Part shown: positions 9,327 through 34,269 of the stretch, piece by piece | Numbering within the stretch: position 1 is the first letter of the stretch | Layout of the letters: the number at the start of each line of letters is the position of its first letter | Assembly (NCBI GenBank): GCA_045123255.1 | Contig: JBGVIN010000106.1 | Coordinates: forward strand, 1-60,114 | Length of the DNA stretch: 60,114 bases | Source of the DNA: Eubacteriales bacterium | GTDB taxonomy: Bacteria > Bacillota > Clostridia > Oscillospirales > CAG-272 | Direction: 5' to 3' | The notes under the pieces: generated by a model | Databases searched by the model: none | Told to the model about the DNA's origin: nothing | The model's input: only the letters and a program-made list of their open reading frames with translations | Translations under genes and position numbers: made by a program

Positions 9327-11189
9327 ATGAAGGACGGATATATTAAGGTTAAGGCAGCTTCGCCAAAGCTCGCGGTTGGCGACGTGTCCTTTAACAAGGA
9401 AGAAATTGTAAAGGAAATCAAAAAAGCGATTAGCGAGGACGTTAAAATTCTCGTTTTACCCGAGCTTTCCTTGACGGGAAAGAGTGCAGGCGAACAGGCT
9501 TTTAGCGGCGTTATACTAAACGCCTCGGAGAAAGCGCTTGAAAACATCAAATTTGCGACACAGGGTAGCGATATTTTGATTTTTGTGGGCGCTCCGCTTC
9601 AGTACAAGGGCGCAAATTATTCCTGTGCGGTTGCAATAAAATCGGGTGAAATTTTAGGCGTAGTTCCAAAGATGGGAAAAATGCCTTATTTTAAGGATTT
9701 CATAAAAATTGGCAGCGAAAAATACCCATTCGGCACAGATTTACTCTTTAGCTGCAACGAAATGAAGGATTTAACTATCGGAGTTGTTGTTGGAGATGCA
9801 GTTACCAACCCCTCCCCCAAGGGATTTTTCCTTTGTGAAAACGGTGCAACGGTCATAGTCAATCTTTCGGGAAGCTACGAGCTTGTGTCAAGTGAGGAAA
9901 TTCGTCGCGCTTGCTTCGTTTCAAAGAGCTACGCAACGAAGAGCGCATATATTGTTGCTAATCCAAGCGAGGACGAGTCAACGACGTCAAACGTTTATGC
10001 CGCACATAATTTGATAGTGGAAAACGGAGATATTTTGGCAGAATCCAAGCCGTTTGAGAAAAAAACAGGCGACTGTGTGTCTGAAATTGACGTTTCTTAC
10101 CTTCGAAGCAAGCGCAACGCAATCGACACGCGTACAGAAGCAATAACCGATATTTCATTCTCATTCAAGCTCCAAAAAACAGCTTTAACAAGAAAAATTT
10201 CCAAAACGCCTTTTTTTCCTGAAGGCAAGGAAGAACTGAAAAAGCACTGTGAAAAGATCCTCACAATGCAGTCACGCTCCCTTGCCAAAAGGTTGACTGC
10301 ATCATATTCAAAGGGAATGGTGCTTGGCATTTCAGGCGGACTCGACTCCACTCTTGCCTTGCTTGCCTGCGTAAAATGCGCAGACTATCTTGGATGGGAA
10401 AGAGAAAAAATCACCGCTATCACAATGCCTTGCTTCGGCACAACGAAGCGCACCAAATCAAACGCAACTGAGCTTTGCCGCGCACTTGGCGTTACCTTGC
10501 GCGAAATTGATATTTTTGAAGCGACACGCATCCATTTTAGAGATATTGGCCACGACGAAAGCGACCACAGTGTAGTTTATGAAAACGCACAGGCAAGAGA
10601 ACGCACGCAAATTTTAATGGACGTGGCTAACTCCCTTGGCGCACTCGTTATCGGCACGGGAGACCTTTCCGAGGTTGCACTCGGTTGGTCAACGTACAAC
10701 GGCGACCATATATCAATGTATAACGTAAATTCCGCGCTTCCAAAGACCTTAATTCGACACGTGGTCGAGCATTTTGCAAAAAATCACGGTGGAGAGGTAA
10801 AGGAAATTCTCCTTGACATTCTTGATACTCCCGTTTCCCCCGAGCTTCTCCCTGCAAAGGAAAACGGAGAAATTGAGCAAAAGACAGAGGACATTGTCGG
10901 CCCGTACGAGCTGCACGATTTCTTCATTTATAATTTCGTTGGCAAAAAATTTGCTCCGTCAAAGATTTACCGTCTTGCTCTATACGCATTCAACGGAAAA
11001 TATGACGGCGAAGTAATCTATAAATGGCTCACGGTGTTTATAAAAAGATTTTTCACGCAACAATTCAAGCGCTCCTGCTCACCCGACGGCGTGCGTATCG
11101 GCTCGGTTTCACTTTCTAAGAATGACTTTAATATGGTGAGTGATTTCTCTTACAAGACTTTTCTTGAAGAATTAGATGAAAACAAGTAA
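9327..11189 (+). CDS. nadE: Two-domain NAD+ synthetase (glutaminase domain apparently degenerate)
   Basis: C-terminal SGGLDST, ENAQARER, TGDLSE, PVSPEL, FTQQFKRS; N-terminal nitrilase fold with PEL but no CED motif. Confidence 0.9.
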   Translation: MKDGYIKVKAASPKLAVGDVSFNKEEIVKEIKKAISEDVKILVLPELSLTGKSAGEQAFSGVILNASEKALENIKFATQGSDILIFVGAPLQYKGANYSCAVAIKSGEILGVVPKMGKMPYFKDFIKIGSEKYPFGTDLLFSCNEMKDLTIGVVVGDAVTNPSPKGFFLCENGATVIVNLSGSYELVSSEEIRRACFVSKSYATKSAYIVANPSEDESTTSNVYAAHNLIVENGDILAESKPFEKKTGDCVSEIDVSYLRSKRNAIDTRTEAITDISFSFKLQKTALTRKISKTPFFPEGKEELKKHCEKILTMQSRSLAKRLTASYSKGMVLGISGGLDSTLALLACVKCADYLGWEREKITAITMPCFGTTKRTKSNATELCRALGVTLREIDIFEATRIHFRDIGHDESDHSVVYENAQARERTQILMDVANSLGALVIGTGDLSEVALGWSTYNGDHISMYNVNSALPKTLIRHVVEHFAKNHGGEVKEILLDILDTPVSPELLPAKENGEIEQKTEDIVGPYELHDFFIYNFVGKKFAPSKIYRLALYAFNGKYDGEVIYKWLTVFIKRFFTQQFKRSCSPDGVRIGSVSLSKNDFNMVSDFSYKTFLEELDENK

Positions 11190-11203
11190 AAGCGTGGCGG
11201 GTT

Positions 11204-11284
11204 AAATGGCGAAGCCAATTTATGAAGGCAGTGCTTTCAATTCGTGTACGTAGTGCAATTTATGATGCGCAAGCATCAATTTAC
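11204..11284. repeat. Mini-hairpin array arm (linker AATTYRT), 4 hairpins
   Basis: ggc/gaa/gcc, gaaggc/agt/gctttc, gtac/gta/gtgc, gatgc/gcaa/gcatc joined by AATTTAT, AATTCGT, AATTTAT and ending AATTTAC. Confidence 0.82.
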
Positions 11285-14779: not shown

Positions 14780-15192
14780 TTTTTCACTCCTTTTTGCTCT
14801 TTTGAGTAAGAATATTTTTGCAAAAAAGCTCCAATCTGCAAATCATTTTTTGCATAATCTTGCGTGTTTTTCACACCGCATTTTGAAAGCTCTTTTCCAA
14901 AAACCCCATTCTAACCCATTTTACACTATTGTATCACACATTTTCCGAAAAGTAAAGACTATTATTATATAATAATGTAAAAAATTTGCAAATATCAAGT
15001 AAATTTGATTTTTTATGTGCGAGTTGATTTTTTCTTTTTTCGGTGTTATAATTTATGTAGGTGATGAAAATGAGCAACAATCTTCCCAAAAGGAAAAATA
15101 ATAGACTTAGCCAATTCCATTATAGTAGCGGCTATTCATATTTTATAACCGTATGCACGAAGGATAGAGCGCGTATATTATCGGAAATAACC

Positions 15193-15219
15193 GTAGGGAC
15201 AGGCGTCCTCGACTGTCCG
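15193..15219 (+). repeat. GTAG-type REP inside the RAYT ORF (left)
   Basis: GTAG-ggacag-gcgtcctcga-ctgtcc-g; encodes VGTGVLDCP. Confidence 0.85.
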
Positions 15220-15359
15220 CTGATAAAATTAACGTATTTTGGAGAAATTGTAGATAAATATATAAATCAATTGAATGATTTTTATAAGCACATCTCGGTT
15301 GACCAATATGTAATAATGCCAAATCATATTCATATGTTAATAACTGTACGTGCCGAAAA

Positions 15360-15386
15360 CGGACAGTCGGGGACGCCTGTCCCTAC
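15360..15386 (-). repeat. GTAG-type REP inside the RAYT ORF (right, inverted)
   Basis: cggacagtcggggacgcctgtccctac is the reverse complement of 15193-15219 at 26/27; encodes GQSGTPVPT. Confidence 0.85.
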
Positions 15387-15584
15387 AAGTAAAAACTCCG
15401 TTGTTTCCTCGTTTGTTTCAACGCTTAAACGGTTTTCCAACAAAGAATGCGGCTTCAACCCTTGGCAACGCTCGTTTTACGACCACGTTATAAGAAATCG
15501 GCAGGACTATGACGAAACAAGAAAATATATTTACGAAAACCCACAAAATTGGGATAAGGACGAGCTTTTTTCAATCGACAACTA

Positions 15585-15613
15585 AAAATGCACGGCGAAA
15601 CGCCGTGCATTTT
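15585..15613. terminator. Bidirectional terminator between RAYT and alaS
   Basis: aaaatgcacggcg-aaa-cgccgtgcatttt. Confidence 0.85.
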
Positions 15614-19039: not shown

Positions 19040-20407
19040 ATGATAAATAAAACAGTTGCCGCAATTTCAACCGCACACGGCAAGGGCGGAGTTGCAATAA
19101 TCAGAATAAGCGGTGATGATGCACTTGAAATTGCCAAAAGAGTAATGAAGCTTCGCACGGAAAAAATAGATGCGCGCAAATCCTATTACGGAGAAATTCT
19201 GCGTGGTGGCGAGGTTATCGACGACGGAATTTTAACCTACTACAAGGCTCCGCATTCCTTCACAGGAGAGGACACCTGCGAAATTTGCTGTCACGGCGGC
19301 ATTTACGTAACGGGTGCGGTGCTTGAAGCGGTGCTTGCAGCAGGCGCACACTTAGCAGGCGCGGGCGAATTTACAAAGCGCGCATACATAAACGGAAAGC
19401 TCACCCTTTCACGCGCAGAGGCAATAGGACAGGTTATCGATGCCAAAACAGATGCACAGCTTCGCCTTTCGTCCTCACAGGCAAGAGGCACGCTTTCACG
19501 AAAGATTGACACAATTCGTGAATCTATCCTAAATTGCATTTCGCACGCATACGCAACCATTGACTACCCCGACGAGGATATAACCGATATAGAAATATCG
19601 GAAATCAATAGCTGTCTTGATACGGTAATTAACGAGCTCGACGCGCTTAAATGCTCGTATCACACAGGACGCGCCGTTTGCGAGGGTATAAAGACCGCGA
19701 TTATAGGAAAGCCAAATGCGGGAAAAAGCTCAGTTTACAATATGCTCCTTGGTGAGGATTTGGCAATAGTCACCGATATAGCAGGCACAACACGCGACGT
19801 TATCGAGCATACCGCAAGCGTTGGCGGCGTTACCCTTTCCTTGGCGGATACCGCAGGCATACGCGAAGCAATTGACACGGTTGAAAAAATAGGAATTGAA
19901 AGGGCGCGCAAAAAAATTGACGGTTCAGAGCTTCTTTTGTGCGTATTTGATTCCTCGGAAAAGGAAACGGACGAGGACAGGCTGATTTTAGAGCTTGCAA
20001 GCGGAAAAACCGCAATTGCCATAATAAACAAAACTGACAAAGGGTGCGCTCTTTCAAGTGAATTTATTAAAAAAATTGACAATGGGTGCCACAAAACCAT
20101 ATATACAAGTGCAAAGGACGGAGTTGGACGAGAGGAGCTTGAAAAGGCGCTTAGCGATATGTACCGTCTTGGCGAAATCAATCTTTCAAGCGATGCGGTT
20201 ATAGCCAACGCAAGACAGTTTGCCGCGACAGAAGCCGCCTACGAAAAATCGCTTGATGCAAAGAACGCACTAAGCTTTGGTGCAACTCCCGACATTATTT
20301 GCTTCTCGCTCGAAAGTGCGCTTAGCGAATTAAATATGATTGACAGGCGCGAGGTTAGCGAGGAGGTCGTTTCCGCGATTTTCTCACGCTTCTGTGTCGG
20401 AAAATAA
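19040..20407 (+). CDS. mnmE: tRNA modification GTPase MnmE (TrmE)
   Basis: TVAAIST, SFTGED..E..CHGG, GKPNAGKSS, IAGTTRD, DTAGIR, C-terminal FSRFCVGK. Confidence 0.97.
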   Translation: MINKTVAAISTAHGKGGVAIIRISGDDALEIAKRVMKLRTEKIDARKSYYGEILRGGEVIDDGILTYYKAPHSFTGEDTCEICCHGGIYVTGAVLEAVLAAGAHLAGAGEFTKRAYINGKLTLSRAEAIGQVIDAKTDAQLRLSSSQARGTLSRKIDTIRESILNCISHAYATIDYPDEDITDIEISEINSCLDTVINELDALKCSYHTGRAVCEGIKTAIIGKPNAGKSSVYNMLLGEDLAIVTDIAGTTRDVIEHTASVGGVTLSLADTAGIREAIDTVEKIGIERARKKIDGSELLLCVFDSSEKETDEDRLILELASGKTAIAIINKTDKGCALSSEFIKKIDNGCHKTIYTSAKDGVGREELEKALSDMYRLGEINLSSDAVIANARQFAATEAAYEKSLDAKNALSFGATPDIICFSLESALSELNMIDRREVSEEVVSAIFSRFCVGK

Positions 20408-20419
20408 TTTATAGACAAA

Positions 20420-20633
20420 ATAAATTGTCGTAAAGCGACATGAATTGATGCAAGCATCATAAATTGTGCCTTTGGCACATAAATTGATTGCTCTGCAATC
20501 ATGAAATATTTATTTAATTCATATCATTAGCCGATTCATGCTTTACAGAAGTAATTCATGACCGCAGGTCAATTCATGCCGAAGGCAATTCATGCAACCC
20601 TGTTGCAATTCATGACGCAAAGCGTCAATTCAC
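20420..20633. repeat. Two-armed inverted mini-hairpin array (linker AATTCAT / ATRAATT), 4+5 hairpins
   Basis: Left: gtcgt/aaa/gcgac, gatgc/aa/gcatc, gtgcc/ttt/ggcac, gattgc/tct/gcaatc with ATGAATT/ATAAATT. Right: gctt/tacag/aagt, gacc/gca/ggtc, gcc/gaa/ggc, gcaac/cct/gttgc, gacgc/aaa/gcgtc with AATTCAT. Confidence 0.9.
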
Positions 20634-20649
20634 TCCCAAAGGATTAATT

Positions 20650-20979
20650 ATGGAAAACAAAAGATTTACAAAAAACGACAACGGCTTTATATGCGAAGCG
20701 TGCGGACACGAGGTTTTGCCACTTGGCTACACCTCGCGCAACCACTGTCCGAAATGTCTTGCCTCAAAGCACGTTGATATAATGCCGGGTGACAGGCAAA
20801 ATCCGTGTGGCGGAGTTATGGACGCCATAAAGGTAGAGCCTGACCCCAAAAAGGGCTACATTATCATCCATAAGTGCCGCAAATGCGGAGAAATCAAGAG
20901 AAACCGCGCGGCGCACGAGGCAAAGGTGCAGCCTGACGATATAAAGAAGCTTATCAAGCTTACCGCAGGCAGGCTTTGA
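20650..20979 (+). CDS. RNHCP domain-containing protein
   Basis: F.CxxCG...RNHCPxCLxSxHVD..PGDR..C...HxCxxCG. Confidence 0.88.
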   Translation: MENKRFTKNDNGFICEACGHEVLPLGYTSRNHCPKCLASKHVDIMPGDRQNPCGGVMDAIKVEPDPKKGYIIIHKCRKCGEIKRNRAAHEAKVQPDDIKKLIKLTAGRL

Positions 20980-22070: not shown

Positions 22071-25000
22071 ATGAAAAAGCTTCGTGTAAAAATCCTTATT
22101 TCCGTGGCGGTGCTTGCCTTACTGCTCGTTACGGTATTTTCAATAAATATGTTTGCGGGAGAGGAGCACCTAAGAGTTACTTACGTCCACGGCGGAAAAA
22201 CGTTTAGTGACGTATGCACAGTCGGCGGCTCGGTTACCTTGCCAACGCCCAAATCAAAGCTCGGCGGAGAGGTTTTCGGTTGGTATGACTCAAACGGCAA
22301 CTTCTACGAATGCGGTGAAGAGTTTACCCCTGCCAAAAACACAAAGCTCTATTGTGCGGAGGGTGCGGAAATTTCGCTCAGTGCAAGCTTGCTCCGTGCC
22401 GCGAGCGTAGGTTATTCGTACGTTAAGCTCAACTCAAACGTTACGATAGATGAAACAATCAACCTTAAAAACGGTATGCTTTATATTGACCTAAACGGCA
22501 ACAGCTTCACTCTCAACACTGAAACGGACGGCTTTGTCGGCGAGGACTTCGGTCTTATTCTTGCTAACTCATCAAGCAAGAAAGCTACACTTACTCACAC
22601 AGCAGGCGGCGAGGAGGCATTCTCCCTCAACTCCTTTATTTCAGTTGCACCCAATACAACGGCAAACTACCTTACGTATACGGTTGGTAAAAACGTTGCT
22701 CTTTCGGAAAACATGAACCTTGTTTCCGTTAAAACAAACATTTCAAGCTTCGAGGGTGCTCTTCACGTAAATCTCCTTGGCGAGGTTGAGTGTGGAAAAA
22801 TCATTCGAGGCAACGGCTTAAACAATGCTGTTTTCGAGGTGTTCGACGGTGCTAAATTGACAACCGATTGCGAATATTTCTTCGACGACGTTGGAACTAC
22901 TGCTAAAACCGCGGCAACCCTTCTCGTTCACGGCGGTAAATTCTACTTAAACGGCTCAACGAGCTACGGCAACAACACAAATATTTATAAAGCTCTCGTT
23001 TTCGGCGGAAGCTATTCTGTCAACACAACGTCATTCTTCAAACTCGGAAACTACAAATCAACGTTTAACTCATCAACAAATCTTTACGATTTTACAGAGT
23101 GTGCCCACGAGGGTGCGCTTATCGAGCATTCACCCGACTGTACGTCAAGCGTTGCTCTTGACCATTTCTGCAAATATTGCGAAACCGTTTTCAAAAAGAG
23201 CTACCCCAGCGGTGTCGGTCACTCATATTCACCTAAGCTCACTCAGGAAATTGTAAACACTCCCGAAAAAACAGAGCCTGGCTGCTATACACTCACCTGC
23301 ACAAAGTGCGGACATCAAACAATACAGTACACCTATCCCGACCCTGCAACGGTTTACGTTACCGTTGGATTTATAAATGAGGACGGCGAGGAGGAATACA
23401 AGCGCTTCCCGTCAACCGACCTTTACTCCTTCAACGGCACGAAAATCATTTCATTCTCTGCTGACGCGCTATATTACGAGGTTAAGAGCAATAGCGGCTA
23501 CGTTACAGAAAAGAACATTCCTCAAAAGAACGTTTTCCACGTTGAAATTCCGCTTGGCGCAACAGATATTTACGGTGACTCACGAAACAATACCCCGTCA
23601 GGTGTTTTCCTGCGTAACGACCACTTAAAGAGCGTTTCCTTCCCTGTTTCGCTTAAAAACATCAACAAGTACGCATTTTCTATGATGCCTCAGCTCGAAA
23701 ACCTTATCGGTATCGAAAACGTATACGGCACTATCTCCGAATACGCATTCCAACAGGGTGCAGAGTCCAAGCTCGTTATGGACAATTTGAAAATCAATGC
23801 TAAAACCATTGGCTCACAGGCATTTAGAAACATAAGAATGACAACACTTTCCTTTGGTCCTAACGTTCAATCAATCAGCAGTGGCGCGTTCGGTCTTGAC
23901 GCGGGTGTAATTTCAAATATCAAGGAAATTTTCGTTGACGGTAACGTTCTTGAGGAAAAAACTCTTAACGAAGTATTTTCGGCACTCAGAAAGTCAGCTT
24001 CATCAGGTCATCAATTTGACGGTCTTGCAATAGTATTTACAGGACACAACTATTCAGCGGTATCAATCCCTGCTACCTGCGTTGAATACGGCTACGACCT
24101 TCTCACCTGTGACCGTTGCGGCTTCGAGGATAAGAGCAACTTTACAAGCACGTACGCTCCGCACAAATACAAGCCGTACACAAAGCCTGCAACCTGTCAA
24201 GCATTTGGTTACGAGGGCGAAAAATGTGAGATTTGCGAGCATATCAACGTTATAAACGACCTTTACTACGACTACAATAACCACTCATACACATACAAAG
24301 AGGTTAAAATTCCTTTAATTCCGGGTTCTTCAATTTGTGTTGACTCCTACTACACGCTCGGTCAGTGCATATGCGGTCAAGTTGAGCCTGACACCGACGA
24401 GAACAGAAGCGAGGTAATAAATCCGGACGAAAACGCAAAGCACAACGAAAAGGAAACGGTTATCACCCCAAGCACGTGCGGTACTTACGGTCTTAGCAGA
24501 TTTGATTGCAAGGACTGTAAGCAATCAAGAACAGAGGTAACAAAGCCTGTTGGCGCACACACATGGCAATACTTTATTACAACTCCTGCAACCTGTAAGG
24601 AGGGCTCAAAGGGCTACGCACTTTGTGCTGTTTGTGAGGAGAAAAAGGATACCACCTCCCAAATTCCCGACCCTAACGGACACGTTAAAAAGGACGGCGA
24701 CGAGGGTGAGCTCGTTCAAGAGGCAACAACAATTCACACAGGCTCAAGAAAATATTACTGCGCGCTTTGCGGTTTCGAGTTTTACGAGGAAACACCTGTG
24801 CTTGATTCAAGCGAGGAGCCAAACTTCTTTGAAAGAATCCTTGAAAAGGGATTTGTCGGTATATTGATTCTTGTTGGACTTGCAATTCTTGCTTTAATGG
24901 GCGTGCTCCTTATTGTGGGCGTTGTTATGACGATAGTTCTCACCTTCAAGAAGAAAAAGAACAAGTCAAAGGGCTACAAGTTCAAGTTCAATACACTTAA

Positions 25001-25319
25001 AAACGGCTCAGACACAGGCTCTGGCAAGACAATTCAAGAGGAGCTTGCAGAAATGCACATTCTCAACAATGAGCCTGAGGAAATCATTGATCACTCAGCT
25101 AACTTCTCAGCTTATATGGAAGCAATCAGCCAAGTTAACGATGCAACCGCTGAGCTTCAAGTTACCGAAACGGACAGCTTGACAGATGCTGAAAGAAACG
25201 CTTCGTTGCAAGCATATCTCGACGCACTCAAAACAGACTACACAAACACCTCAAGCGCACCGTCCGATAGCGGTAAATCTCTTGCCGAGATGATGGATGA
25301 ATCCTCACCTAAGTTCTAA
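22071..25319 (+). CDS. Large surface-exposed membrane protein (B-repeat-like domain, BspA-type LRRs, Cys-rich repeats, C-terminal TM)
   Basis: N-terminal signal/anchor; TLPTP..F.GWY repeat-like domain; LxxIxxxAF repeats; PxTC..G...CxxC repeats; long hydrophobic helix followed by KKKKNK; acidic tail. Confidence 0.75.
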   Translation: MKKLRVKILISVAVLALLLVTVFSINMFAGEEHLRVTYVHGGKTFSDVCTVGGSVTLPTPKSKLGGEVFGWYDSNGNFYECGEEFTPAKNTKLYCAEGAEISLSASLLRAASVGYSYVKLNSNVTIDETINLKNGMLYIDLNGNSFTLNTETDGFVGEDFGLILANSSSKKATLTHTAGGEEAFSLNSFISVAPNTTANYLTYTVGKNVALSENMNLVSVKTNISSFEGALHVNLLGEVECGKIIRGNGLNNAVFEVFDGAKLTTDCEYFFDDVGTTAKTAATLLVHGGKFYLNGSTSYGNNTNIYKALVFGGSYSVNTTSFFKLGNYKSTFNSSTNLYDFTECAHEGALIEHSPDCTSSVALDHFCKYCETVFKKSYPSGVGHSYSPKLTQEIVNTPEKTEPGCYTLTCTKCGHQTIQYTYPDPATVYVTVGFINEDGEEEYKRFPSTDLYSFNGTKIISFSADALYYEVKSNSGYVTEKNIPQKNVFHVEIPLGATDIYGDSRNNTPSGVFLRNDHLKSVSFPVSLKNINKYAFSMMPQLENLIGIENVYGTISEYAFQQGAESKLVMDNLKINAKTIGSQAFRNIRMTTLSFGPNVQSISSGAFGLDAGVISNIKEIFVDGNVLEEKTLNEVFSALRKSASSGHQFDGLAIVFTGHNYSAVSIPATCVEYGYDLLTCDRCGFEDKSNFTSTYAPHKYKPYTKPATCQAFGYEGEKCEICEHINVINDLYYDYNNHSYTYKEVKIPLIPGSSICVDSYYTLGQCICGQVEPDTDENRSEVINPDENAKHNEKETVITPSTCGTYGLSRFDCKDCKQSRTEVTKPVGAHTWQYFITTPATCKEGSKGYALCAVCEEKKDTTSQIPDPNGHVKKDGDEGELVQEATTIHTGSRKYYCALCGFEFYEETPVLDSSEEPNFFERILEKGFVGILILVGLAILALMGVLLIVGVVMTIVLTFKKKKNKSKGYKFKFNTLKNGSDTGSGKTIQEELAEMHILNNEPEEIIDHSANFSAYMEAISQVNDATAELQVTETDSLTDAERNASLQAYLDALKTDYTNTSSAPSDSGKSLAEMMDESSPKF

Positions 25320-33678: not shown

Positions 33679-33845
33679 CCATTGCGAAAGCAATGGCATA
33701 TCATCACGCTTTTGCGTGTATATCATCGCCGAAGGTGTATATCATCAACCGTAGGTTGCATTCTTTCGCAATGATGATATACAATTTCTGCGAAATTGGT
33801 GATATACAAAACTTTGTTTTGATGATATACACGCCTTACGGCGTG
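33679..33845. repeat. Two-armed inverted mini-hairpin array (linker TATATCAT / RTGATATA), 4+3 hairpins
   Basis: Left: ccattgc/gaaa/gcaatgg, cacgc/tttt/gcgtg, cgcc/gaa/ggtg, caacc/gta/ggttg. Right: caatttc/tgc/gaaattg, caaaac/ttt/gttttg, cacgcc/ttac/ggcgtg. Confidence 0.9.
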
Positions 33846-33921
33846 ATTTGGATGCGAGAAAGCGCAAATCTATTGAATAAACTGCTTAGTTGTGATATAA
33901 TACACTTGATGAGGTGATATT

Positions 33922-34269
33922 ATGTCAAAAAATTATTTACTAATATATTCAGAGCAGTTGGCAACTGATATAGAATTGCTTTGCCAAAACATCAATGCTC
34001 CCTCTAATACTCTTTTTCAGATCCGCAAAAGTTCAAGCAGTGTGTATGCGAATATCCGTGAAGCCAATTACGGACAGAGCAAGGCGGATATGCTTTCAAA
34101 ATTCGAAATCGCGCTCAAGGAATGTAGCGAAACCGAAGGCTGGTTACAGTTGTTACATAATGCAAACGGAATAGATGAAGAAACCTATAAAAATCATCGA
34201 AATCTTTGCGGTCGTATAAGACGAATGTTGATTTCGAGTTGTAAGACTTTGAAGGAGAATATGAAATGA
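33922..34269 (+). CDS. Four-helix-bundle protein (TIGR02436 / 23S_rRNA_IVP-like)
   Basis: QIRKSSSSVYANIREA, SKADMLSKFEIALKECSETEGWL family signature. Confidence 0.88.
   Translation: MSKNYLLIYSEQLATDIELLCQNINAPSNTLFQIRKSSSSVYANIREANYGQSKADMLSKFEIALKECSETEGWLQLLHNANGIDEETYKNHRNLCGRIRRMLISSCKTLKENMK

Follow-up and report, generated by a model that had tools for sequence, protein, structure and literature searches.

The region between mnmE and RNHCP in a 60,114-nt stretch of DNA from Eubacteriales bacterium (GenBank assembly GCA_045123255.1, contig JBGVIN010000106.1; the whole stretch is called the window below) is occupied by an array of small hairpins held apart by seven-nucleotide linkers, and the question raised by this locus is what kind of element such an array represents. 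The array is one copy of a dispersed family of tagged-hairpin repeats. We consider it likely to be a gene-less, non-autonomous, two-armed copy of a repeat cassette linked to the protein family PF05635, similar in kind to the intervening sequences (IVSs) of 23S rRNA or to the mirror doublets (REPINs) of repetitive extragenic palindromes (REPs), and dispensable for the genes on its two sides. By analogy, it would stand to that cassette as a REPIN stands to its REP-associated tyrosine transposase (RAYT), or as an IVS devoid of an open reading frame (ORF) stands to one that carries it.

All coordinates are window positions unless a contig is named. The parts of the array and its junctions, as read from the sequence and the mnmE domains, are as follows.

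20405-20407, + strand: stop codon TAA of mnmE, overlapped by the linker-like word AATTTAT (20406-20412), which is the left insertion junction
20420-20507, - strand: left arm, four clean units and one degenerate linker; its - strand reads hairpin + AATTYAT, the linker orientation of the family
20420-20426, 20440-20446, 20459-20465 and 20479-20485: left-arm linkers ATAAATT, ATGAATT, ATAAATT and ATAAATT
20427-20439, 20447-20458, 20466-20478 and 20486-20500: left-arm hairpins GTCG/CGAC, GATG(C)/(G)CATC, GTGCC/GGCAC and GATTGC/GCAATC
20501-20507: degenerate linker ATGAAAT, which closes the left arm
20508-20552, unstranded: centre, an AT-rich junction (atttattt) and two decayed right-arm units (AATTCAT atcattagccg ATTCAT gctttacagaagt)
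20553-20633, + strand: right arm, with the four hairpins GACC-GCA-GGTC, GCC-GAA-GGC, GCAAC-CCT-GTTGC and GACGC-AAA-GCGTC
20553, 20571, 20587 and 20607, and 20627-20633, + strand: right-arm linkers, AATTCAT at the first four and AATTCAC at the last
20634-20649, + strand: terminal unit TCC-CAAA-GGA (hairpin 20634-20643) + TTAATT, carrying the Shine-Dalgarno (SD) sequence AAAGGA of RNHCP, whose ATG is at 20650

An earlier note on this DNA had described 4 + 5 hairpins, all different, with mirrored linkers, in a spacer that they nearly fill, and reading the sequence bears this out: the array occupies almost the whole of the 242-nt spacer, the linkers of the two arms are complementary, and every stem starts with G, finishes with C and has a C-G pair closing a loop of 3-5 nt. 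The note also stated that the arms cannot form one long cruciform, since the hairpins all differ and only the linkers are mirrored. The linkers are indeed mirrored, but the arms do pair in part when the whole 245 nt is folded as RNA (-69.9 kcal/mol, z = -5.1). A "ladder" fold, in which linker-linker helices would carry protruding hairpins, was also considered; the minimum-free-energy structure mixes in arm-arm pairs and the pure ladder is marginal by nearest-neighbour energies, and this fold is not relied on. No ORF lies in the array, and the PF05635 ORF found between or beside the arms in relatives is lacking here. A domain search identifies the neighbours as mnmE, RNHCP and a radical SAM gene. 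Since no convincing promoter is found in the AT-rich centre and no convincing + strand terminator within the array, it is probably co-transcribed with mnmE and RNHCP.

The array has many relatives in its own genome. The assembly that holds the window (2.0 Mb in 125 contigs, 42.5% G+C, 93% complete) contains about 22 AATTYAT arrays, every one of them intergenic, with units of 16-22 nt made up of the constant 7 nt and a palindromic variable part of 9-15 nt. Of the 119 spacers between linkers in the whole genome, 71 can form a stem of 3 bp or more; shuffled or random DNA would give about 3. The sequence of the stem is not conserved within the genome (111 of the 119 spacers are distinct); what is kept is the terminal G-C pair (69 of the 71) and the loop-closing C-G pair (61 of 71). 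All six two-armed arrays have the same order, an ATRAATT arm and then an AATTYAT arm ("<<< >>>"); the one-armed arrays are found in both orientations relative to the flanking genes and their transcription. Seven of the 15 AATTYATG words of the window fall within the 214 nt of the focal array. The window holds one more array of this class:

11190-11284, + strand: one-armed AATTYAT array between a stop codon (11187-11189) and an intrinsic terminator common to convergent genes

Outside this genome the family is patchy. A pattern of three AATTYAT linkers was counted in 31 species genomes of the genus and gave 89, 39, 38 (the present genome), 11, 11, 6 and 4 matches, with two or fewer in the rest and none in 19; the reversed pattern, used as a control, gave none in all 31. 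This search across genome and clade, of the kind suggested in the earlier note, reveals a real non-coding family. A scan across bacteria by DNA pattern alone, with one genome per species, returned at least 119 loci in 833 kb of surrounding sequence, and among the 119 loci listed the hosts are nearly all uncultured gut or rumen Clostridia (Acutalibacteraceae, Oscillospiraceae, Christensenellales and "Eubacteriales"). Variable parts reappear across loci and species, GACCGCAGGTC being one example, and multi-unit blocks repeat at several loci in two relatives, G014 and G022. One such three-unit block, GCGATTTATCGC / GACACRCAGTGTC / GCAACGCAGTTGC on AATTCAT, is found at a minimum of four G022 loci (C1:145493, C12:158393, C12:170476 and C12:224319). 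The present genome also has arrays with other linkers, namely TATATCAT (the commonest), YATATCAC, TCATAAC and ATTTCAM, which have a common core WWTCAY. It is worth pointing out that the linker AATTCAT together with the first base of the stem spells CATG at every junction (for instance 20556-20559), and that the other linker classes are without CATG.

What ties these arrays to a protein is the distribution of PF05635 genes. This is the ORF family of the 23S rRNA IVSs, selfish elements excised by RNase III (PMC4990558); it resembles Avd, a protein of diversity-generating retroelements (DGRs) (PMC10053308), and genes of this type have been noted within cas loci (PMC3936711). The present genome has four PF05635 genes, each adjoining a two-armed array with its own linker. 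One of these modules lies in the window:

33690-33866, unstranded: two-armed array of another linker class, TATATCAT / ATGATATA, placed directly after tRNA genes and before the PF05635 promoter
33922-34269, + strand: PF05635 (23S_rRNA_IVP, four-helix-bundle) gene of the TATATCAT-linked clade; a gene-plus-array module, and not the cognate of the focal AATTYAT array

The full order in this module is tRNA genes, terminator, TATATCAT/ATGATATA array, promoter (TTGAAT-17-TATAAT) and PF05635 gene. Contig C47 repeats the order tRNA-terminator-array-promoter-PF05635, and its gene has an in-frame stop.

In the genus as a whole, 26 of 31 genomes have 1-7 PF05635 genes, which are mostly found beside arrays and cover at least 12 linker classes. 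On the maximum-likelihood tree of these proteins the linker class needs 14 changes, close to the minimum of 12; the shuffled mean is 25.3, and none of 200 shuffles came as low. The four AATTYAT-linked proteins (L070, L078, L068 and L069) form one clade (99/95), and their genes stand in four different contexts: flavoprotein-cmk, dnaN-recF, after an rlmD-like gene, and one other. The arms agree with those of the gene-less arrays. In G014 and G046 the PF05635 gene has an ATRAATT arm on its upstream side and an AATTYAT arm on its downstream side, as the arms are ordered in the focal array, while in G002 the order is reversed both around the PF05635 gene and in all five gene-less two-armed arrays, including the one between mnmE and RNHCP. 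The place taken by the PF05635 gene in relatives is the position of the focal centre. The site of the arm-PF05635-arm cassette of G014 is empty in the present genome (C104:27364-27427).

The same pairing is found in two further samples. Among the 119 loci listed from the scan by DNA pattern, PF05635 ORFs are present at 16, and 13 of them lie about 20-150 nt from the array or overlap it, against about 0.06 expected; this is an enrichment of more than 100-fold. When all ORFs within 400 nt of the arrays at these loci are clustered, PF05635 comes first (13 loci) and an RlmD-like methyltransferase second (7). The AATTYAT clade (17 rows, 99/94) takes in all 13 array-proximal ORFs; the distant ORFs L115 and L186 belong to other clades, and a third distant match, L199, was weak and left off the tree. 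The third sample consists of 78 metagenome loci picked by protein similarity alone, and here AATTYAT chains are found beside 12 of 28 clade members and none of 50 others (Fisher p = 7e-7). By these sequence comparisons, the AATTYAT linker pairs exclusively with one PF05635 clade in three independent samples. The closest solved structure to the clade protein by sequence is PDB 2rld (E = 6e-22; five chains in the entry). Three alignment columns (V22, L37 and Y71 in L070 numbering) are weakly class-specific and serve as a lead only.

The RlmD-like gene deserves a word of its own. The 3' end of this RlmD/RumA-type 23S rRNA methyltransferase gene is found time and again next to arrays and PF05635 cassettes belonging to several linker classes (L054, L056, L060, L069 and C40 of the present genome). 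In the AATTCAT scan, the gene stands beside the array at 7 of 117 loci (L091-L209) among the matches listed. It is probably an insertion hot spot.

A second line of evidence comes from the site itself, where alleles with and without the array can be compared within one species. The filled allele, with the 242-nt array, is found at L028, L029, L031 and L032, and in part at L037; the empty allele, with a spacer of 8 nt reading TAA-GAGGAATT-ATG or TAA-GAGGAACT-ATG, is found at L030, L033 and L035. The RNHCP protein is identical in both sets, and the flanks diverge from the window by 2.3-3.7% for filled and empty alleles, as filled alleles do among themselves. Because strains with an identical RNHCP protein make do with an 8-nt spacer, the array is, by this comparison of alleles, dispensable for mnmE and RNHCP. 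The array stands in place of the 8-nt spacer and does not split it, both junctions have linker-like AATT(T)AT words, and the terminal unit supplies the SD in place of the GAGGA of the empty allele. In all, the array behaves as selfish or neutral DNA and not as a regulator of the locus.

Across the genus, mnmE is upstream of RNHCP in 22 of 24 other genomes, and the AATTYAT array is absent from 20 of these 22 spacers; 17 spacers measure 1-98 nt, and three array-free ones contain unrelated fillers (63, 121 and 314 nt). The array is found in this spacer only in two other genomes, G014, the closest relative, and G002. The G014 array (167 nt) has the arm order of the focal array and also its terminal SD unit, which in G014 reads AATTCAC tcctgaaagga, while its remaining hairpins are different; that of G002 (181 nt) has the converse arm order. 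In other species of the genus (L003/L005, L004/L006, L007, L021 and L027) the spacer was also seen to be filled with unrelated sequence of 85-314 nt, which in some cases includes long inverted repeats. The mnmE-RNHCP site seems to gather insertions repeatedly.

Comparison between strains further reveals how the arrays change. Gain and loss of units, which the earlier note had proposed to look for, are both seen, and so is replacement. The focal array itself is rather quiet: it differs at 2 of 242 positions (0.8%), as compared with about 3.4% in its flanks (2.8-3.7% among strains; binomial p ~0.01), and on these counts it is not drifting neutrally. The differences are in loop bases, with three alleles at one loop position, together with one unit-level replacement in L029, whose centre has an intact hairpin gccgaaggc where the focal centre has atcattagcc. 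Whole units distinguish strains at two other loci, where the flanks diverge by about 1%: one unit is duplicated, two are deleted, three internal units have been replaced (C61 locus), and the centre-proximal units were replaced and the outer ones kept (C111 locus). The centre of one C111-locus allele (L212-L214) is homologous to the focal centre (gattgctNtgcaatc-ATKAAAT-...-atca..agcc). Such homologous centres across loci, and the repeated multi-unit blocks in G014 and G022, indicate that the arrays, to judge from these common pieces, exchange or copy blocks of units.

Two other observations touch on this point. On contig L034 (ENA ERZ28633708 scaffold_54105) the gene flanking the C111 array is joined to the focal array and RNHCP via a common 21-nt stretch, ATGAATTGATGCAAGCATCAT; the join reflects either true ectopic recombination or a chimeric assembly brought about by the repeats. 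Arrays of this kind do break metagenome assemblies and can produce chimeric joins, as in this contig. At the left junction of the G014 cassette (L070, G014:C25), the first hairpin, GTGCCGC-tgaga-GCGGCAC, takes one half of its stem from the coding sequence of the upstream gene, and the linker ATAAATT includes the stop codon TAA. In the present genome the sequence of the empty site is GTGCCGCCGAGGCAGAATGA. Flank bases are likewise drawn into the terminal hairpins of other junctions, as in the SD bases GGA paired with TCC. There are hints here that hairpins may be templated from adjoining sequence.

Are these hairpins formed by DNA or by RNA? The loops are informative in this respect. A survey of 570 hairpins from three data sets, oriented by linker and taken from both arms, found 281 G..A loops (GNA or GNNA) on the AATTYAT strand against 5 T..C loops. 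The strand with the G(N)NA loops switches at the centre and always runs 5' to 3' away from it. No single transcript could therefore have the G(N)NA form of both arms. GNRA tetraloops are typical of RNA; many of the tetraloops here are GTCA, GTTA or GATA (GNYA). Hairpins closed as C-GNA-G are reportedly especially stable as DNA mini-hairpins, according to the work on d(GCGAAGC) by Hirao and Yoshizawa and the triloop bonuses of SantaLucia and Hicks. As for the stems, 552 of 588 foldable units (94%) are perfect and 36 have a single mismatch, with no wobble bias among the latter (12 G:T versus 8 A:C). Taken together, these features point to palindromes at the DNA level rather than to a classic structured RNA. 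We infer that the palindromes are either read on a folded single strand or arise by templating, for instance in quasipalindrome template switching.

How, then, might such a cassette work? Its unit consists of a class-specific 7-nt word (here AATTYAT) and a mini-hairpin whose stem is free apart from the basal G-C pair, the closing C-G pair and the G(N)NA loop. Full-length copies are those in relatives, where the gene for the PF05635 four-helix bundle lies between or next to arms of opposite polarity, and on this reading the focal copy is an insertion-type polymorphism that has replaced the 8-nt spacer, bringing along an SD of its own and a linker compatible with the stop. Folding of the hairpins on the strand running 5' to 3' away from the centre, probably as single-stranded DNA (ssDNA), would set the linkers side by side; an oligomeric PF05635 protein of the matching clade would read these single-stranded linkers, and recombination or template switching from unit to unit would let the arrays change and spread. 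The last two steps, reading by the protein and the ensuing spread, are put forward tentatively and at somewhat less than an even chance, with the pairing of clade and linker as the ground for the reading step. We take Avd to act with nucleic acid, and DGR homing presumably needs a DNA hairpin with a GNNA-type loop and a free stem. Avd has the same protein fold family as the array-linked PF05635 proteins (PMC10053308). A mechanism of the DGR or retro type was ruled out for the present genome: there is no PF00078 match to a reverse transcriptase in it, so its PF05635 genes are not DGR components, and no template/variable repeat pair or adenine-specific variation was seen.

Several points weigh against the cassette interpretation and should be considered together. 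To our knowledge, binding, cleavage or mobility has never been demonstrated for a PF05635 protein outside the DGRs. No AATTYAT-clade PF05635 gene is found in the 93%-complete assembly, where the best tblastn match is 50% identical, and none turned up on metagenome contigs of the same species: of the 80 best metagenome loci, not one has flanks at least 90% identical to this genome. The focal array may thus be an orphan in this genome. G022 (97% complete) has 11 pattern matches and no clade gene was found in it, and G013 has a clade gene and no dispersed arrays. The pattern in these three genomes indicates that the gene is not needed for the arrays to persist, and leaves its role in their spreading unproven. 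At the site itself, the target-site duplication for which the earlier note had proposed to look did not turn up in clean form at the focal filled/empty pair, nor did a fixed target, and the junctions in the sister species differ from the focal ones. The direction of the event is also not certain. Insertion is favoured by the short spacers of most species; the terminal unit common to the focal species and G014 would also fit with an early insertion that was later lost precisely. Finally, the idea that the length of an arm is quantised to a pentamer was dropped, as there are 4-7 linkers per arm, with no sharp mode and no clear quantum of 5.

The nearest biological parallels to the cassette are the REP/RAYT system, taken up below, and the ORF-bearing IVSs of 23S rRNA (S23p/PF05635, for example in Coxiella burnetii; PMC4990558). 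Like the focal family, the IVSs are small selfish inserts with mutually complementary ends, which carry a PF05635 ORF or have lost it, are tolerated without disruption of the host gene product, and have a patchy spread consistent with horizontal transfer. Two features of an IVS-type cassette are found here as well: arms of opposite polarity built from one 7-9-nt word, and a linker word specific to the associated protein clade. The focal array differs from an IVS in lying between protein-coding genes and not in an rRNA helix, in having arms made of word and mini-hairpin arrays instead of a long stem, and in having no ORF.

Among the other explanations, the one that survives best is that of a structured RNA: a small RNA, or else an element acting in cis, as a leader or in the 3' untranslated region, that stabilizes, processes or regulates the mnmE-RNHCP transcript. 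This is the way in which Rfam files the Gut-1 motif (RF01706), the catalogued entity nearest to the focal array, found in gut metagenomes (Weinberg et al. 2010, Genome Biol 11:R31, PMC2864571). The likeness of the two is real: Gut-1 also has at least three tandem hairpins with free, covarying stems and a constant A/U-rich heptamer; its UUC loops on the annotated strand correspond to GAA on the opposite strand, as in the focal family; and its linker GUGAAAU differs from AUGAAUU/AAUUCAU at 2 of 7 positions. Against the Gut-1 covariance model the focal array scores 27.9 bits (- strand, 20582-20655), which is below the curated gathering score of 50 bits, and the remaining AATTYAT arrays gave no match at E <= 0.01. 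An ATTTCAM-class array in the same genome (C4:22592-22670) is a bona fide Gut-1 match at 52.3 bits. Since the focal score falls below the threshold while the ATTTCAM class passes it, the AATTYAT array is a sister class of Gut-1 and not a member by the Rfam criterion. Other Rfam matches of the focal array (miRNA, snoRNA) are noise. The remark in the earlier note that this is not a standard annotated feature type is therefore right for the focal array but not for its sister class with the linker GUGAAAU, which is catalogued as RF01706. The array does not belong to a described family with known function, because none is known for Gut-1, and coding constraint does not account for it.

The weak Gut-1 match of the focal array, together with its Gut-1-like architecture, is one argument for the RNA explanation; others are its position inside an operon with no internal terminator, where it is probably transcribed, the good RNA fold, the SD within the terminal hairpin, and the location of some one-armed arrays between a stop codon and a terminator, in the manner of the mRNA stabilizers of the REP type. 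What makes this explanation unlikely are the properties of the family as a whole. The strains with the 8-nt spacer show the element to be dispensable, arrays are found in both orientations relative to transcription, and several of the arrays close to a PF05635 gene are found upstream of the promoter of that gene. The loop asymmetry tracks the linker and not transcription, flipping between the arms. RNA families usually contain many G-U pairs, while the stems here are Watson-Crick-perfect with less than 0.5% wobble. Arrays of the Gut-1 class (ATTTCAA) also precede PF05635 genes (L051 and L071), and on the present evidence the focal array is a larger, two-armed DNA-level repeat that has a protein partner; Gut-1, by contrast, is entered in Rfam as a small RNA in its own right.

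A different possibility is that the words act as operators or iterons on double-stranded DNA, bound by a dimeric or oligomeric protein (possibly PF05635 itself), with the palindromes as spacers or secondary sites and with a local role in autoregulation, nucleoid organisation or buffering of supercoils. Such a role would fit two observations: the stems are perfect on both strands, and the final linker in several relatives borders on the -35 box of the PF05635 promoter or overlaps it, as in CATCAT-TTGACA-17-TATAAT. We regard this possibility as very unlikely all the same: the linker spacing of 16-22 bp is not helically phased, a strand asymmetry of the loops as strong as 281 to 5 has no meaning on a plain duplex, and copies without a gene, the focal array among them, are located within operons and a long way from any PF05635 promoter.

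Little credence can be given to an element of the REP/BIME (bacterial interspersed mosaic element) or REPIN type made and moved by a Y1 HUH transposase of the RAYT kind, despite the obvious resemblance. The focal family and REP/BIME elements are both dispersed intergenic palindromes with a short conserved tag, found in both orientations and as mirror doublets, and both have a single-copy cognate gene flanked by matching repeats and outnumbered by non-autonomous copies. The present genome even has three candidates of about 175 aa, in which the HUH (HIH) and Tyr motifs accompany weak PF01797 matches; the window contains one:

15061-15585, + strand: RAYT-like Y1 HUH protein of 174 aa (HIHMLI ... 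SFYDHVIRN; weak PF01797 match, 23.4 bits), followed by a terminator

This gene, single-copy in style, and its paralogues (C9:180-476 and C2:9750-9974) are not flanked by arrays, and in the 833 kb around the 119 loci listed there are two RAYT-like ORFs, neither of them in the recurrent ORF clusters within 400 nt of the arrays. REP stems are conserved within a genome, while the stems here vary freely in tandem units of about 20 nt, and the partner protein is a four-helix bundle with no known catalysis and not a Y1 HUH enzyme.

The suggestion in the earlier note of an "inverted CRISPR logic" or an "attC-like cassette array", for which the regular alternation of constant and variable parts and the gain and loss of units between strains speak, can be set aside as most improbable, since the variable parts of 9-15 nt are self-complementary, recur across loci and species (again GACCGCAGGTC) and hold no foreign-sequence information, the units of 16-22 nt on a 7-nt constant part are far below attC size, there are no cas genes, and PF05635 is the only gene enriched beside the arrays. 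CRISPR repeats are about 23-50 nt long, with non-palindromic spacers of 26-72 nt and cas genes nearby; the neighbours here are mnmE, RNHCP and the radical SAM gene. Integron attC sites measure about 57-141 nt, with R and L boxes and an intI integrase, and for intI no search was made.

To return to the PF05635-linked cassette, we may go one step further and speculate that each PF05635 subfamily is a sequence-specific reader of its own 7-8-nt word, shown to it in a near-contiguous tandem series by DNA-type C-G(N)NA-G mini-hairpins folded on one strand of unwound DNA; protein and arrays would together be a self-propagating, programmable module, and the gene-less arms (Gut-1 and the present arrays) would colonise intergenic spacers and turn over at the centre. 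This idea we put forward with considerable doubt. If true, it would account for three orphans at once, namely the Gut-1 motif, the 23S-IVS family outside the DGRs, and the hairpin arrays. PF05635 is a very large family, and Gut-1 has been an orphan "RNA" motif since 2010; literature searches found no account of cassettes of PF05635 and hairpin arrays, nor of the function of Gut-1, beyond the papers cited. The one-to-one pairing of linker word and protein clade makes both the Gut-1 and the IVS-protein questions testable by direct binding, and the present locus and its relatives offer a filled/empty pair within one species as well as versions of one element with and without the gene. Should the pairing be a matter of recognition, we would have here a new, compact and apparently re-programmable system of protein-nucleic-acid recognition and a new kind of bacterial repeat element.

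One more gene of the window may be mentioned. Downstream of the RNHCP and radical SAM pair, at 22071-25319 on the + strand, lies the gene for a protein of 1082 aa with BspA-type leucine-rich repeats (PF13306).

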